From assembly GCA_031362385.1 (NCBI GenBank), contig JANLSL010000273.1, forward strand, positions 1-60,488: a stretch of 60,488 bases of DNA, given 5' to 3'. The first letter of the stretch is position 1; every line of letters begins with the position of its first letter. The DNA is from Alphaproteobacteria bacterium. GTDB taxonomy: Bacteria; Pseudomonadota; Alphaproteobacteria; Rhodospirillales; Rhodospirillaceae. Of this stretch, positions 49,679 through 60,488 are shown piece by piece. A program made the translations under genes and the position numbers. The notes beneath the pieces are model-generated. The model did not search any database and was not told where the DNA came from. It was given only the letters and a program-made list of their open reading frames with translations.

Positions 49679-49908
49679 CCGAATCCCGCCAATTTGTTGC
49701 CTGCACTTTCCGCCTCGGGGACAGCCGCAGTTACACCTACCATAACGACGGCGAGCCCGTTGCCATCGGCGATGAGGTCAAGGTCACTGACCGGGACGGA
49801 GTGGGCTGGAAGCGCGTTCATGTTGTCGCGATTGGCGATACCCCCCCCCTCATTCCCGACCAAACCCATTCTTGGAAAGGTCGAGCCAGAGCCCGCGCCC
49901 GACGCTGA
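49675..49908 (+). CDS. Hypothetical small protein, probably frame-disrupted at a C9 tract (restored ORF would end at 49936)
   Basis: See finding; the tail RARARARR looks out of frame, and the alternative frame ends in a TGATG overlap with recT. Confidence 0.45.
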   Translation: MTESRQFVACTFRLGDSRSYTYHNDGEPVAIGDEVKVTDRDGVGWKRVHVVAIGDTPPLIPDQTHSWKGRARARARR

Positions 49909-54404: not shown

Positions 54405-54902
54405 ATGCCTAATCGGTATCTAAAACATCCTCCAATTCGGCGCTTTGACGAAGGCTATACGGTTGATGACTCTGGTTGCTGGGTTTGGCAGGGCTCAACG
54501 AACACCAACGGCTATGGCAAGTTTCGAGTTGAGGGAAAGACGGTGTATACGCACCGCTTTTCATATACTCGATTCAAAGGCCCAATTCCGAGCGGGCTGA
54601 CAATAGATCACTTGTGCCGCAACCGCCTGTGCTGCAACCCAGATCATTTGGAAGTCGTGTCATTTGTTGAGAATCAACGACGCAGGCACCTCGTTCCCTG
54701 TCCGCATACTGAATATCGAAATGAGGGTCGATGCATACCATGCGACCGGCTCGCAAGCAGAATGCGAACACGAAAATGGCGTGAGCGCAAGGCATCGCTC
54801 GCAAATTTAGAAGGAGCAACCCTTTCCCGCCACATCGCGCCAGACGTGCGGGAAATACGGCCACGAAACGCCTGCAAGTCGCAACGCGTGGGGAAACGGT
54901 GA
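54405..54902 (+). CDS. HNH endonuclease (165 aa)
   Basis: ...GCWVWQGSTNTNGYGKF...TIDHLCRNRLCCNPDHLEVV; GGAGGG upstream of ATG 54405. Confidence 0.8.
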   Translation: MPNRYLKHPPIRRFDEGYTVDDSGCWVWQGSTNTNGYGKFRVEGKTVYTHRFSYTRFKGPIPSGLTIDHLCRNRLCCNPDHLEVVSFVENQRRRHLVPCPHTEYRNEGRCIPCDRLASRMRTRKWRERKASLANLEGATLSRHIAPDVREIRPRNACKSQRVGKR

Positions 54903-56386
54903 TGCGTGCCGCCACATGTTTTTCCGGTATCGGCGCTCCTGAAATGGGCCTGCCTGAGTGCGACTGGGTCTGGCACGCCGAGATTGAGCCGTTCCCTTCG
55001 GCCGTCATGGCCGAGCGGCATCCCGAAAGCGCGAACCTTGGCGACGTGCTTGCCGCTGACTTCATTGATCGCGCGAAAGCAATGGGGCCACTCGACATCA
55101 TGGCCGGCGGGCCTCCGTGCCAAGCATTCTCGGTTGCTGGCAATCGCGGCGGCATGTCCGATGCGCGCGGCAATCTCACTCTAAGATGGGTTCAAATTCT
55201 CCATGCAATTCAGCCTCGAAATGCCATCACCGAAAACGTCCCCGGATGGCTCTCAATGCCAGACAATGCCTTCGGGTGTTTCTTGGCAGGACTTGTCGGA
55301 GCAGATGATGCCCTGTGTTCGCCACTCGACGGGGGAAAGTGGCCCGGTGTCGGTATGGTTGCCGGGCCAAGGGCACGGACGGCATGGCGGATTCTCGACG
55401 CTCAATATTTCGGAGTGGCCCAACGACGCCGCCGTGTGTTCGTTGTCGCAGATTTTGGAAACGGCGCCGATCCCGCCCAAGTATTATTTGAGCGCGCTGG
55501 CTTGTCGGGGAATCCTGCGCCGCGCCGAGAAACGCGGGAAATATCTTCCAGAGATATTGCACCGAGCCTTAGAGCACGTAGCAACGCCAGCCACCGAGAT
55601 GACAGCGACACTTACGTCGCAGACATAGCCCCGACGCTCGACAGTCAATTTGGTTCGAAGATGGGCCAGAATAATCAGCACATCAACGGGGGGGGGGATT
55701 GTTCGTTGCCAGCCGTGGCGATGTGCCTCAATCACGGCGCGCAACAGCGCCTCGACCCGACTTTCGAGACCCTGATCCCAACAAACAGGTGCGGCTTCGA
55801 TGTTGCTCATTCGCTACGCGCGGAAGGCTTCGACGCTTCCGAGGATGGAACTGGCCGTGGGACACCGATTGTGCCGGTTGTATATCGCACGTCTGGGAAT
55901 TGCGGAGCATGGGCGACAGGAGATCGGACTGATGCGCTTACACAATCGACCGATCCGAATAGCCATGTGGTCGCAATCCAAGCCGGAGCCTTGCGCGAAA
56001 ACCCGAACAGCGGACCGGATGGCATCGGAGTGCAGGAAGATTTGGCCTATACGATCGAGGCTCGGGCCGAGGTTCAGGCGGTTGCATTCGCCCAAAACCA
56101 GCGTGACGAGGTTCGCACGATGGACGTTGCTGGCGCGCTCGCGGCTGAGCCCGGAATGAAGCAACAGACCTATGTGAATGACGCATGGGCAGTGCGCCGG
56201 TTGACGGTGCGGGAATGCGAGCGCCTCCAGGGATTTCCAGATGATTTCACGGCCATCACCTACCGCGGCAAACCGGCCGCCGATGGCCCGCGATACAAAG
56301 CACTCGGCAATTCATGGGCCGTTCCGTGCGGCCGCTGGATTCTCAACAGGATCGCCATCGCCCTAGCCACCCAGGAGCCATCATAA
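54902..56386 (+). CDS. DNA (cytosine-5) methyltransferase
   Basis: Motifs FSGIGA, GGPPCQAFS, ENVPG, QRRRRVF, and TVRECERLQGFPDDF...LGNSWAVP. Confidence 0.9.
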   Translation: MRAATCFSGIGAPEMGLPECDWVWHAEIEPFPSAVMAERHPESANLGDVLAADFIDRAKAMGPLDIMAGGPPCQAFSVAGNRGGMSDARGNLTLRWVQILHAIQPRNAITENVPGWLSMPDNAFGCFLAGLVGADDALCSPLDGGKWPGVGMVAGPRARTAWRILDAQYFGVAQRRRRVFVVADFGNGADPAQVLFERAGLSGNPAPRRETREISSRDIAPSLRARSNASHRDDSDTYVADIAPTLDSQFGSKMGQNNQHINGGGDCSLPAVAMCLNHGAQQRLDPTFETLIPTNRCGFDVAHSLRAEGFDASEDGTGRGTPIVPVVYRTSGNCGAWATGDRTDALTQSTDPNSHVVAIQAGALRENPNSGPDGIGVQEDLAYTIEARAEVQAVAFAQNQRDEVRTMDVAGALAAEPGMKQQTYVNDAWAVRRLTVRECERLQGFPDDFTAITYRGKPAADGPRYKALGNSWAVPCGRWILNRIAIALATQEPS

Positions 56387-56604
56387 TGGCACTGACTAAA
56401 TCCGCCATGAAAGAGCGCGAACGGATAATCGCGCTTCACAAGCAAGCGGCCATCGAAACGGTGCAGACGATCCTTGCCAGCGGGATGCCCGGAAGGACGA
56501 AATCAGAACGCCAAAAAGCGCGATGGATCGCCAAGGGTTTTGAACTGGCAACCGACGCACTCAAACGCGCAATCAACGAATCCAGCGAACAGGAGCCATC
56601 ATAA
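56386..56604 (+). CDS. Hypothetical small protein (72 aa) bracketed by 18-bp direct repeats
   Basis: TAATG coupling at both ends. Confidence 0.5.
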   Translation: MALTKSAMKERERIIALHKQAAIETVQTILASGMPGRTKSERQKARWIAKGFELATDALKRAINESSEQEPS

Positions 56605-56708
56605 TGGACACACCAACCAAGATTGCGCGGGGGCTGGACAGCAAGATTGCGCAGTCGCTCGACATCATCGATTCAGCGATCCGAGATAATCCGGCAAGCC
56701 ATGTGTTT
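56604..56708 (+). pseudogene. 5' fragment (35 codons) of an IS-disrupted PAPS-reductase-like gene
   Basis: MDTPTK...ASHVF reads in frame into GMFSGGHDS at 58895 once the IS and one target-duplication copy are removed. Confidence 0.8.
56701..56708. repeat. Target site duplication ATGTGTTT (left)
   Basis: Identical octamer at 58887-58894. Confidence 0.8.
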
Positions 56709-56733
56709 GGCGTTATTATACTTCCCATACCCA
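56709..56733. repeat. IS left inverted repeat GGCGTTATTATACTTCCCATACCCA
   Basis: Matches the reverse complement of 58862-58886 at 23/25. Confidence 0.85.
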
Positions 56734-56847
56734 GATCGGGGGTGCTAAGTGAGTAGCTCCCGCGACTGTGCAGGCTTGCTGTTTCCAAAGGCGGCAAATT
56801 CATATTGTGCGGGCAGACATCTTAAAGTCAGCCGAGGCCCCACGGAT

Positions 56848-57753
56848 ATGAGAATCCCAGACCAACTTATGAACACGCCAGTCTATCTCTACCCTGATTT
56901 GCAAAGGGCTGAGGCTGGAGAAAAGGCGGGCGGAACCGGCTTTTTGTTTGGCCACACTATAGCTGGGACTAATAGCTTTACGCTTTGGGTTGTGACAAAT
57001 CGTCACGTCGTTGAAGGAGGCGCTTGCACTGTTAGGCTTAACAGAAAGGGTGGAGGTCTAGAGTTTATAGACACAGATGAGAGCGAATGGTTTTTGAATG
57101 AAGAACATGATCTTGCTGTCAGGCCAATAGCCCTTTCCCAAGATGTGCATGATTTCAATTGTTTCGTCACTGAATGGATTTTGCAGAGGGATTGGGCACG
57201 CGCCTTGGATATTGGGCCAGGCGATCCATGCATAACAATAGGAAGGTTTGTTGGCCACGATGGGAAACAACGAAACACGCCGACGGCGCGATTTGGCCAA
57301 ATCTCTCAGATGAATGCAGAACCGGTCAACTATCGCGGACGAGTGCAAGACAGTTTCCTTGTGGAGATACGATCCATCGGCGGAGCCTCCGGCTCTCCAG
57401 TTCTAGTTCACCTAGATCCAATGTTTTATAGGCCCAGCATAAATTTGTCTAAGGCCCCAGACGGGTCAACTCTTGGTCAGGGGGTTTATCCCAAAGGCCC
57501 TTGGTTGCTCGGCATCAATTGGTGCATGATCCCATCTTGGGAACCTGTATGCGACTCATCTGGGCAGATTCTGCCTAATAAAACGCAAGTTCCTGCCAAT
57601 ACAGGAATGATGGGGGTCATCCCAGCGTGGCATCTACATGATATGCTCGAAACAGGCGTTGCTTCTCGACGGAGGATTGAGATTGAACGTGAGATAGCCG
57701 CATTAGGCGCGATCAATCTCGATAACGGCCTTCCTACTTTAGAGAAGGGTTAG
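56848..57753 (+). CDS. Trypsin-like (S1/Trypsin_2-type) serine protease with an unknown ~110-aa C-terminal domain; IS passenger
   Basis: His VVTNRHVV, Asp EEHDLAV, Ser GGASGSPV; AT-richer by eye than the phage; alternative GTG start at 56749. Confidence 0.7.
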   Translation: MRIPDQLMNTPVYLYPDLQRAEAGEKAGGTGFLFGHTIAGTNSFTLWVVTNRHVVEGGACTVRLNRKGGGLEFIDTDESEWFLNEEHDLAVRPIALSQDVHDFNCFVTEWILQRDWARALDIGPGDPCITIGRFVGHDGKQRNTPTARFGQISQMNAEPVNYRGRVQDSFLVEIRSIGGASGSPVLVHLDPMFYRPSINLSKAPDGSTLGQGVYPKGPWLLGINWCMIPSWEPVCDSSGQILPNKTQVPANTGMMGVIPAWHLHDMLETGVASRRRIEIEREIAALGAINLDNGLPTLEKG

Positions 57754-57901
57754 GTTTGTTAGTGGCGCTTCCTAGCAGCTTTTCGAAGGCCGTGTCTGCG
57801 TCGGTGGGGTTTAGTTCGCCAGCGTCCACGAGTTCGCGCACGACCTTTCGGAACAACTCGCTTTGCTGCTCCGGCGTCAGTTCGACTTTTTTCTTTGGCA
57901 T
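57734..57901 (-). CDS. 55-aa ORF downstream of the transposase (inside the IS)
   Basis: Hand translated MPKKKVELTPEQQSELFRKVVRELVDAGELNPTDADTAFEKLLGSATNKPNPSLK; starts 16 nt after the tnp stop. Confidence 0.4.
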   Translation of the reverse strand: MPKKKVELTPEQQSELFRKVVRELVDAGELNPTDADTAFEKLLGSATNKPNPSLK

Positions 57902-57917
57902 GGCTGCCCCCAATCAA

Positions 57918-58823
57918 TCACGCATATTTCAGCCGCTTCCCGACAACACCGCTCAACAATTTGTCGGCGCGGTCAGCGTCGTTATAGCCCAAGGCAACGC
58001 GGTTCGAATAGCGGAAGTCAAATTCAGCCAGATAACGGTGCAGGTGCTTCTCGTTGCAGAACTGATAGGTTCCGCGCATCCCACGTTTGAAGATGCTGAA
58101 AAAGCCTTCGACGGTGTTGCTATGAATGGAGCCACGGACATACTCGCCACGCGCATGGGTGGTGGTTTCATGGGCGGCAAACTCGCGTCCAACGGCGCGA
58201 TAGTGAGTGGCTTCGTCGGTATAGAGTTGAGCCTGACGGGCGACGTTGGAATATACAATGTCAGCAATTTCACCGATGACCATCTTGTTGGCGTCAAAGG
58301 AGCGAGCCTCGCCAGTCGCGCGGTCTATCAGGGACACAACACGCATCTTGTGACGGAATCCGCCACGGGCCTTTTCAGAGCCTTCCTTGACGCCGATATA
58401 GGTTTCATCAGCTTCAACCGGAGTGCCGCCAGCGCCAAAGATCATGGGATTGCTCTTTGCCATGGCTTCACGAATGCGGTGCGACATGAACCAAGCGGTT
58501 TTGAGGGTGACGCCAAGGGTGCGGTGAAGCTGGTTGCTGGAAATGCCCTTCTTGCTGCCAGCGATCAGATACATCGCCTGCAACCAGATATGCAGGGCAA
58601 CGTGCGAGCCTTCAAAGATGGTGCCGATCCGCACGGTGAAAGGCTTGCGGCACTGGTAGCACTTGTAAAGGCCGACGCGGGTGGATTTGCCGCCCATAAG
58701 ACTAATGCGCTCCACGCCACCGCAATGCGGGCAGGTCGGGCCTTCCGGCCAAACGCGGGCTTCCACATAGGCAAAAGCGGCCTTTTCGTCGTGGAAGTGA
58801 GGGGCGGAAAGTGCGGAAACCAT
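57918..58823 (-). CDS. IS1595-family transposase
   Basis: N-terminal Zn-ribbon ...WPEGPTCPHCGG...YKCYQCRKPFTV..GTIFE.SH, followed by an ISXO2-like DDE region. Confidence 0.85.
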   Translation of the reverse strand: MVSALSAPHFHDEKAAFAYVEARVWPEGPTCPHCGGVERISLMGGKSTRVGLYKCYQCRKPFTVRIGTIFEGSHVALHIWLQAMYLIAGSKKGISSNQLHRTLGVTLKTAWFMSHRIREAMAKSNPMIFGAGGTPVEADETYIGVKEGSEKARGGFRHKMRVVSLIDRATGEARSFDANKMVIGEIADIVYSNVARQAQLYTDEATHYRAVGREFAAHETTTHARGEYVRGSIHSNTVEGFFSIFKRGMRGTYQFCNEKHLHRYLAEFDFRYSNRVALGYNDADRADKLLSGVVGKRLKYA

Positions 58824-58861
58824 GGTCTAACTCCTTATGGAGCAACCAATAGGGTTTCCTT

Positions 58862-58886
58862 TGGGTATGTCAAGTATAATAACGCC
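58862..58886. repeat. IS right inverted repeat
   Basis: The reverse complement is GGCGTTATTATACTTGACATACCCA. Confidence 0.85.
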
Positions 58887-58894
58887 ATGTGTTT
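58887..58894. repeat. Target site duplication ATGTGTTT (right)
   Basis: Identical to 56701-56708. Confidence 0.8.
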
Positions 58895-59647
58895 GGTATG
58901 TTCAGCGGTGGGCATGACAGCCTTTGCTCAACGCACGTCGCATCGCAGCATCCTGCATTCACTCGCGCCGCTCATATTAACACGACTATCGGGATTGAGG
59001 AAACGCGGCAATTCGTGCGGCGCGTGGCGACGGAACGGCAATGGCGGCTGATCGAATACTATCCGCCGATCAGCTACCGGGACATTGTTTTGAAGCACGG
59101 CTTCCCTGGCCCCGGTGGTCACGCGATAACCTATGCGCGGCTCAAGGAACGCTGTGTGCGTCAAATTGTCCGCGAGCATAAGCAGTCCTTCAAAGATCGC
59201 GTCGGCCTTGTGACAGGCGTTCGACTATCGGAAAGCACGCGCCGTATGGGGCATGTTAAGCCTGTCCAAAGAGTTGGCGCACAACTTTGGATTGCTCCAA
59301 TTCTGCATTGGAACGACGATGACAAACTCGAATATATGGCCCGCTACGAACTACCCCGGAATCGGGTTGTTGATACGATATGTATGTCAGGCGAGTGCTT
59401 GTGTGGAGCCTTCGCCAAGAAAGAAGAATTGTTTGAAATCGAGCAAGCATTCCCAGAAACGGCAGCGATAATCCACGCTCTGCAACGTGATGCGGAAGCC
59501 GCTGGCGTTCATGCCAAATGGGGGACGCGCCCACCAAAAGGTCGTTGGATCACAACCAAGGGCGGGATGCTCTGCGCGACCTGCAATCAGAAGAATATGG
59601 CCGCATTTCCGATGTTCACAGAAAGGCAAACCAATGACCATGACTGA
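58889..59647 (+). pseudogene. 3' fragment of the PAPS-reductase-family (PP-loop) gene disrupted by the IS
   Basis: FSGGHDS PP-loop, ...IAPILHWNDDDKLEYM...P.N...MSGECLCG pattern of the PAPS_reduct family; lacks its own N-terminus. Confidence 0.75.
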
Positions 59648-60293: not shown

Positions 60294-60463
60294 TGGCTGT
60301 TCACACTTGTATCGCTAACCCATGTCCTATTTGCCACCCGCAATACTACCATAGCGCACCTATTCCGCATGGCTGCATCTGTCCGCCCGGTTCGGAGAAA
60401 ACATGCCAAGGCGCGACATGCCCCCGTCGAGCGAGAAATGCGACAGGAGGCCCAAGACAATGA
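60293..60463 (+). CDS. Cys-rich small protein (56 aa) spanning the contig junction
   Basis: AAGGAGGAGAG upstream; TGATG coupling; MAVHTCIANPCPICHPQYYHSAPIPHGCICPPGSEKTCQGATCPRRARNATGGPRQ; its 3' part is duplicated at 1..116. Confidence 0.5.
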   Translation: MAVHTCIANPCPICHPQYYHSAPIPHGCICPPGSEKTCQGATCPRRARNATGGPRQ

Positions 60464-60488
60464 CACACAACCCCAAGCCCGATGTGAC
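60348..60488. repeat. Terminal direct repeat, copy 2 (identical to 1..141)
   Basis: Exact identity with the window start. Confidence 0.95.

Follow-up and report, generated by a model that had tools for sequence, protein, structure and literature searches.

Insertion sequences (ISs) of the IS1595 family are typically compact, at about 0.9-1.2 kb, and members of the family that also carry passenger genes form an established category. Such passenger-bearing derivatives are reportedly found among the ISNwi1-type elements, a subgroup whose definition we take to be a DDEK motif plus E-x3-R ('ER4'), inverted repeat (IR) tips of the form GGnnatTAT, and lengths of 1.75-4.75 kb for the passenger derivatives. 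Here, we describe an IS1595-family element within a 60,488-nt stretch of DNA (contig JANLSL010000273.1) that was analysed over its whole length and is termed the window throughout. There is little doubt that positions 56709-58886, a span of 2178 bp, constitute an intact, autonomous IS1595-family IS with a protease gene as cargo, inserted with an 8-bp duplication into a PAPS-reductase-like accessory gene of a complete temperate phage. The insertion point lies between codons 35 and 36 of that gene, in the early/modification region of the phage. The backbone of the element consists of a 25-nt left inverted repeat (IRL), a transposase with zinc-ribbon and DDE domains, a 55-amino-acid (aa) helical protein and a 25-nt right inverted repeat (IRR); a one-gene cargo slot, filled in the window by an HtrA-like serine protease, lies between the small open reading frame (ORF) and the IRR. 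This kind of element is already known; this exact element is new. Its features and those of the interrupted gene are as follows.

56604-56708, plus strand: 5' fragment (35 codons) of the PAPS-reductase-like (PP-loop) gene, from alignment of the restored ORF.
56701-56708, no strand: target-site duplication copy 1, ATGTGTTT, in an 8-bp register backed by 56 of 69 relatives.
56709-58886, minus strand (that of the transposase): whole IS1595-family element, from its IRs and 8-bp duplication, with the same architecture and tips in 69 relatives.
56709-56733, no strand: cargo-end terminal inverted repeat (IRR relative to the transposase), 23/25 against the other end.
56848-57753, plus strand: cargo gene for a 301-aa S1/HtrA-like serine protease (Trypsin_2, PADLOC PDC-S45, phrog_7688).
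57734-57901, minus strand: conserved 55-aa backbone ORF (MPKKK...EQSxxF...AGELNPTDAD...), present in 68 of 69 relatives.
57918-58823, minus strand: IS1595-family transposase, 301 aa, full length (Pfam, NCBIfam and end-to-end alignment with homologues).
58862-58886, no strand: transposase-end terminal inverted repeat (IRL), with a 15-nt tip GGCGTTATTATACTT that is 97% conserved across relatives.
58887-58894, no strand: target-site duplication copy 2, ATGTGTTT, from direct comparison of the flanks.
58895-59647, plus strand: 3' fragment of the PAPS-reductase-like gene, with the SGGHDS PP-loop and the whole of PF01507 (Pfam, phrog_424).

The ends of the element are sharply defined. In a reading of 56300-59400 and a direct comparison of both ends, positions 56709-56733 (GGCGTTATTATACTTCCCATACCCA) are identical at 23 of 25 nucleotides to 58862-58886 read as its reverse complement (GGCGTTATTATACTTGACATACCCA), a likeness that ends abruptly after nt 25, and ATGTGTTT stands immediately outside both of them (56701-56708 and 58887-58894, 8/8). 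An earlier note on this DNA had already proposed these repeats, and the comparison bears them out as unique in the window: the 15-nt tip occurs there in two copies only, inverted, against ~0.02 matches expected at up to 2 mismatches. By composition-based estimates, chance would yield 0.0016 inverted pairs per window that match at 23/25 and lie 0.7-8 kb apart, and ~3e-8 such pairs that also have an 8/8 flanking repeat. The element tips read GGCGTTATTAT. The literal direct repeat returned by a repeat finder is 13 nt long (GCCATGTGTTTGG), and the window, taken alone, leaves the boundary formally ambiguous because the target flanks (..GCC / ..GG) happen to mimic the IS tips. The 8-bp register is the right one, given that perfect 8-bp duplications accompany the shared GGCG... 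tips in 56 of the 69 relatives discussed below. An Rfam search of 56000-59600 found nothing, and a promoter/terminator scan gave background level only.

The target gene can be fully reconstructed, in keeping with the earlier note. Removal of 56709-58894 joins 56604-56708 to 58895-59647 and recreates a 285-aa ORF of the PP-loop/PAPS-reductase family, which matches PF01507 over residues 37-196 (40.6 bits, cut-off 22.5) and phrog_424, annotated 'PAPS reductase, moron/auxiliary', at 1.9e-28. The SGGHDS PP-loop occupies residues 39-44, with S39, G41, D43 and S44 invariant in the homologue alignment. Because the restored ORF matches PF01507 and scores below the NCBIfam CysH equivalog threshold, it is a member of the family and no CysH orthologue. 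Homologues of the restored protein (n=1414; best 86% identical) are typically uninterrupted and 260-300 aa long, and the junction SHVFG|MFSGGHDS aligns to them free of gaps, directly before the SGGxDS PP-loop. At the DNA level, the two flanks map to 519-599 and 592-1313 of an uninterrupted homologue (L097) and overlap there by exactly 8 nt. A related uninterrupted gene is found in a temperate-phage early region together with an S24 repressor, YqaJ/RecT and an integrase. In the proposed mechanism, the transposase would have bound both IRs and cut the target with an 8-bp stagger. It was also observed that a GTG at 58889, inside the right duplication, opens a 252-aa ORF (58889-59647) with the PP-loop and the whole of PF01507. 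The insertion comes after residue 35, ahead of the domain start at residue 37, and may therefore truncate rather than inactivate its target.

The recipient replicon is a phage genome in its entirety. The window encodes a portal, large terminase, exonuclease and integrase, and its positions 1-141 are identical to 60348-60488. This exact overlap of 141 bp between the termini points to a temperate-phage genome of 60,347 bp that closes circularly (or is terminally redundant), as opposed to a prophage fragment in a chromosome; the window probably stems from a k=141 assembly. The interrupted operon consists of a C5-methyltransferase gene, a 72-aa ORF and the PAPS-reductase-like gene, and the protease gene is transcribed in the same direction, so that it could be expressed by read-through.

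The minus-strand 301-aa ORF, for which the earlier note had predicted an IS1595-type transposase, exceeds the Pfam and NCBIfam cut-offs for that family. It matches DDE_Tnp_IS1595 (PF12762, ISXO2-like) at 1e-30 (107.2 bits, cut-off 27), the N-terminal Zn_ribbon_IS1595 (PF12760) at 8e-12 (45.4 bits, cut-off 25.4) and NCBIfam NF033547 at 177 bits (cut-off 75). The zinc-ribbon residues C31, H33/C34, C55 and C58 are conserved, and D139, D203, E239, K246 and E267/R271 are invariant in an alignment with homologues. The element therefore displays hallmarks of the IS1595 family, namely the DDE domain, the zinc ribbon, terminal IRs and an 8-bp duplication; the names given by PGAP to transposase relatives go no further than 'IS1595 family transposase'. 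Placed beside the ISNwi1 definition given above, the residue spacing, the tips and the clade lengths fit, and judged by these motifs the element probably belongs to an ISNwi1-like subgroup. The features held in common with ISNwi1-type derivatives are a ~300-aa zinc-ribbon and DDE transposase, an 8-bp duplication, terminal IRs that start GG...TTAT, the D...D...E-x6-K plus E-x3-R spacing, and a total length within the presumed 1.75-4.75 kb range of passenger-carrying forms. It departs from them in being new, its best transposase match being 90% identical and accompanied by different cargo.

Relatives were sought in one genome per species, which yielded at least 579, and the best 80 were examined. 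These share 64-74% transposase identity with the window element and belong mostly to Sphingomonadales; transposase homologues overall number roughly 8000 or more. Of the 80 loci, 69 are bounded at both ends by the 15-nt tip seen in the window, which lies ~63 nt upstream of the transposase start and, as its reverse complement, 1.5-3.5 kb downstream, and in 56 of these 69 delimited relatives the flanking 8-bp duplications are perfect. The recurrence of the same tips and duplications means that the IRs and the duplication in the window represent the family norm and no coincidence; the earlier note had likewise named 8 bp as the duplication length normal for the family. The delimited relatives are 1505-3460 bp long, and clade members in IMG/VR reach 5055 bp.

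Mobility together with the cargo is indicated by a sister IS of 2187 bp, which is 77% identical in nucleotide sequence to the window element over its whole length, protease included. Its gene order is the same: protease (P0122, 82% aa identity), 55-aa ORF and 302-aa transposase. The sister IS is present in 16 contigs, where it occupies no fewer than 4 distinct sites and is flanked by 8-bp duplications, ATGTTCGC and CATTCCTC among them; because it carries the same protease at at least 4 sites, the unit moves as a whole. One of its target contexts includes a phage-type HNH endonuclease. A single target locus, in different samples, has received the sister IS twice, ~57 bp apart and in the same orientation (L089 ~745-760; L091 ~210-225), and this locus, with the phage-type HNH endonuclease nearby, may be an insertion hot spot. 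More broadly, clade members occur on 29 IMG/VR contigs, in several cases flanked by perfect duplications, and the clade thus reaches predicted viral genomes, rarely. The DNA of the window element found no match in GenBank phages and matched plasmids only by transposase fragments (66-73%), and neither the exact window transposase nor the 334-aa form of the protease is on record in the contig index. The presumed source of the window element is a Sphingomonadales-like host chromosome, from which it would have moved during lysogeny or replication.

Several side observations concern target choice in the clade. At 58 distinct sites (L001-L080), the duplicated octamers are rich in AT (62-78% per position) against a GC-rich genome background, and their flanks are enriched in C at -2 (25/58) and G at +2 (32/58), a C/G pattern with which the window site agrees. 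Many insertions fall in the middle of palindromes or hairpins, such as tgtca-N8-tgaca or stems rich in GC around T8/A8. Insertions into the motif cctACTTGTCTagg, or into cctagacaagTAGGATTT next to it, recur in different genomes (L009, L030, L032, L063; L070, L072, L080), which points to a site that is specifically preferred or to a host element that is repeated. At L033 (5921-5945), a clade member abuts the IRR tip of another element (..TAATAACGCC) at a distance of 8 bp, as tandem or nested elements.

All-against-all clustering of the ORFs in the 69 delimited elements and the window separates the backbone from the cargo. Two genes are conserved across the 69 elements, the transposase and the small ORF directly downstream on the same strand, the latter with the pattern MPKKK..E(T/S)..EQSxRF....(L/M)(I/V)xAGEL(N/S)PTEAD.A(L/F)(D/E).L. 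The earlier note had counted both the protease and the 55-aa ORF as passengers; the protease retains that status, but the small ORF, present in 68 of 69 relatives, is for that reason a backbone gene. Its third codon positions are the most variable (conservation 0.62 vs 0.78 and 0.76), and those of the transposase gene behave likewise. A single-sequence AlphaFold2 (AF2) model of the 55-aa protein predicts helices at 10-26 and 32-45, forming a two-helix hairpin with a basic N-terminal tail. An exhaustive search recovered 61 representative clusters, nearly all of them stand-alone proteins of 47-86 aa, and profile searches in Pfam, NCBIfam, PADLOC, PHROGs and the PDB gave zero credible relatives; the PDB matches were to designed armadillo repeats sharing a common 14-residue motif and were rejected as spurious. 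The 3' tail of the small ORF overlaps the 3' end of the cargo gene by 20 nt.

Backbone conservation at the nucleotide level ends at about nt 1100 of the element, within the small-ORF 3' tail, and on the cargo side of the relatives only the last 25-50 nt are conserved. The stretch between is variable cargo, which in 55 of 66 elements runs convergently to the transposase gene. A special conserved DNA site at the backbone end was considered and discarded, the peak at nt 1066-1080 (0.92) being no higher than the best transposase segments. An internal, vestigial IRR as the cause of cargo capture was likewise rejected, with nothing beyond chance (≤16/25) apart from a degenerate tip in L051. That tip (..GTAAAATAACGCC), at element nt ~1160-1179 and directly after the small ORF, is the sole case among 70 elements and may be what remains of an inner right end.

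The cargo gene of the window encodes a serine protease of the S1 (chymotrypsin-fold) type, with His, Asp and Ser in that order on a double beta-barrel fold. The 301-aa form is on record in the protein collection (P0121), and an in-frame GTG at 56749 offers an alternative start that would give 334 aa. The protein matches Trypsin_2 in Pfam (4e-8, 34.4 bits, cut-off 27.6) and phrog_7688, and its catalytic triad, H53/D88/S181, is invariant in 46 homologues. The AF2 model (pLDDT 91.9) most closely resembles the protease domains of DegQ, DegS, HtrA and MamO in the PDB. With the HtrA/DegS/DegQ proteases it shares the chymotrypsin fold and the H-D-S triad (Foldseek probability 1.0, E 7e-8 to 1e-6); unlike them, it lacks a PDZ domain, has an extra C-terminal helical segment and is just 13-17% identical in sequence. 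The absence of both a PDZ domain and an obvious N-terminal signal peptide suggests that the protease is probably cytoplasmic. With the protease as tblastn query, GenBank phages yielded no match and plasmids a single one. The element as a whole has a GC content of 53.0% against 56.8% for the rest of the window, and the claim that it is AT-richer than the phage holds for the protease part (50.0%) but not for the transposase gene (56.5%); the lower GC is due to the cargo alone, and the difference is modest.

A possible function for the protease is indicated by its match to PDC-S45, a candidate entry in PADLOC (E 3.6e-12, 43.8 bits, model positions 11-216 of 293). The window cargo and its homologues both match this model, at 3.6e-12 to 9e-14; unlike a defence-island gene, the window gene rides an IS, and it covers ~200 of the 293 model positions. 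Protease homologues located outside any IS adjoin a CBASS operon (SMODS/AGS_C plus S_4TM) and, in an Acetobacter plasmid, a methyltransferase/helicase/GIY-YIG cluster. It is a reasonable hypothesis that the protease is a candidate anti-phage or superinfection-exclusion effector, and in that event the phage would have gained a putative defence gene by IS hitch-hiking. PDC-S45 has also been listed in an S. meliloti prophage (PMC12429752). That prophage, phiAK21-039, reportedly has both a PDC-S45 match and a terminase gene interrupted by an 'IS1480' transposase (PMC12429752), and it could be a second protease-carrying IS in an alphaproteobacterial prophage.

Across the clade, cargo is exchanged remarkably rapidly. 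The closest transposase (P0001, 90% identity) is accompanied by a DUF3800 gene in place of the protease, and homology between its element and that of the window is limited to nt 1-1092 and the last 39 nt. When elements were paired with their nearest neighbours by transposase, just 9 of 64 pairs had a cargo family in common, and pairs with 94-98% identical transposases carry unrelated cargo. Transposase identity is no different between same-cargo pairs (69.1%) and different-cargo pairs (69.3%). The 93 cargo ORFs of the clade elements include the following assignments.

DUF3800: 14 of the 93 cargo ORFs.
GmrSD_N: 3.
RelA_SpoT: 2, with a match to PDC-S33 at 2.6e-125.
PemK/MazF: 2.
Trypsin_2: 2.
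ParE, PIN, Abi_2, HNH and Mut7-C: single cases each.
PD-Lambda-5: one two-gene system.

By these predicted domains, defence or toxin functions dominate the clade cargo families, and about half of the families have no annotation. The DUF3800 domain is an effector of type VII retrons (PMC7736814). A further family, cargo cluster 8, is shared by 14 elements (L002, L005, L006, L012, L020 and others) and encodes proteins of ~280 aa with conserved H..R..E and R-x4-H motifs; it matches no Pfam or PADLOC model, and from its R-x4-H motif it may be a HEPN-type RNase.

The breakpoints of the cargo swaps lie within the small-ORF tail and 25-50 nt from the IRR. No mechanism of exchange was found, with neither an internal IRR nor a recombinase in the clade elements. 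In ISEcp1-type capture, too, a neighbouring gene is mobilised by an IS within a longer unit; the clade differs in that the IRR closing the right end of every relative is genuine and well conserved and that no inner IRR is left, and this genuine conservation of the IRR argues against ISEcp1-style surrogate ends. The passengers of Tn7-like and Tn3-family transposons and the cassettes of integrons similarly combine a conserved backbone with a variable slot for defence or toxin-antitoxin genes. Unlike these, the window element is only ~2 kb long, usually with one gene in the slot across the clade, and has no resolvase, integrase or attC-like site, and the clade breakpoints fall at the two positions given above. 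It is possible, as an idea that we hold tentatively and would sooner doubt than adopt, that this Sphingomonadales-centred clade is a dedicated miniature defence-gene shuttle, with a conserved 1.1-kb backbone and a cassette-like slot whose single defence or toxin genes are exchanged, by a mechanism as yet undescribed, much faster than the transposase diverges. We know of no account of the IS1595 family that mentions a conserved 55-aa second backbone gene, a bias of cargo toward defence or toxin genes, or cargo turnover between near-identical backbones. Nor did the literature library searched contain any account of this clade's small conserved protein, of its defence-biased cargo or of the speed at which that cargo is exchanged, a negative that is no proof of novelty.

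A number of points weigh against the picture of an intact, autonomous IS that brought a candidate defence gene into the phage. No identical second copy of the window IS was found in GenBank phages, IMG/VR or the JGI metagenomes, and an exact 24-nt IS-specific string had zero matches in the latter two. The same three collections contained no version of the phage with an empty site, which the earlier note had suggested seeking: in GenBank phages the reconstructed empty site found nothing beyond distant methylase matches, the restored target protein nothing close in IMG/VR, and an exact 32-nt empty-site string zero matches in the JGI metagenomes or IMG/VR. A Sphingomonadales-like origin is conjectural, and the placement in an ISNwi1-like subgroup is a probable one, judged by motifs. 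The PDC-S45 match is moderate at 43.8 bits and PDC entries are predictions only, which leaves the anti-phage role putative. Because neither an identical copy nor an empty site was found, activity and recency are drawn solely from the intactness of the element and from its sister. The suggestion that the insertion is a recent event is plausible in view of the perfect duplication, intact ORFs and intact ends.

Of the alternatives, the one that retains most weight, though we consider it unlikely, is that the insertion is real but now immobile, fixed in the phage lineage, with a protease that has no defence role and acts as a selfish stabilising or addiction factor or is a neutral hitch-hiker. In its favour are the missing identical second copy and empty site, the putative status of the protease function, and the cargo families without annotation, about half of those in the clade. 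Set against it are the perfect duplication, the 23/25 IRs, three full-length ORFs with invariant catalytic residues, the predominance of defence or toxin domains among clade cargo, and the defence neighbourhoods of protease homologues outside ISs. It is very improbable that the locus is an assembly artefact in which a chromosomal IS was joined into the phage contig through a short shared repeat. The window does have the look of a k-mer assembly, given its 141-bp terminal overlap, and the searches turned up no other sequence that shares its junctions, but a chimera would neither produce an 8-bp duplication placed precisely at the IR tips nor leave the target ORF restored to the codon, and the 13-nt shared string is far below the assembly k-mer. 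Finally, the reading that only the ~1.1-kb transposase and small-ORF part is the IS, with the protease a resident phage gene beside a chance IR-like sequence, accords with the typical length of the family and with the point at which backbone conservation stops, yet is hardly credible and was rejected, since restoring the target ORF requires taking out the protease as well, none of the 69 delimited relatives is shorter than 1.5 kb and each has its second IR on the far side of a cargo, the sister IS brings this protease to its 4 or more unrelated sites, and no IRR-like sequence follows the small ORF.

As an intact protease-carrying IS within a phage gene, the locus is in one respect textbook: a clean, fully reconstructable transposition by an IS family known for passengers. 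Phages reportedly tolerate IS elements poorly and seldom carry them (Leclercq et al., PMC3429520), and in a 2026 survey of P2/P4 elements, which considered whether transposable elements (TEs) bring in defence genes, essentially no examples turned up (PMC13586616). A complete phage with an IS-borne candidate anti-phage protease provides a concrete example of a possible TE route to defence or superinfection-exclusion genes, and if the shuttle idea is true, the window would be a direct example of an IS bringing a new antiviral gene into a temperate phage. Taken across the clade, the pattern hints at a small carrier of alphaproteobacterial defence genes that has been little described, built from a conserved micro-protein and a one-gene slot (DUF3800, HEPN-like, GmrSD, RelA/SpoT, MazF, ParE, PIN, Abi_2, PD-Lambda-5) that is reshuffled between near-identical backbones. 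About a dozen unannotated cargo families are candidates for defence-gene testing.

Two further observations concern homopolymers elsewhere in the phage genome. A G10 tract at 55688-55697 lies inside the 495-aa C5-cytosine methyltransferase gene (54899-56386), where it encodes ..NGGGD.., and is possibly a slipped-strand phase-variation tract or a sequencing-error spot. A C9 run is present at 49841-49849.

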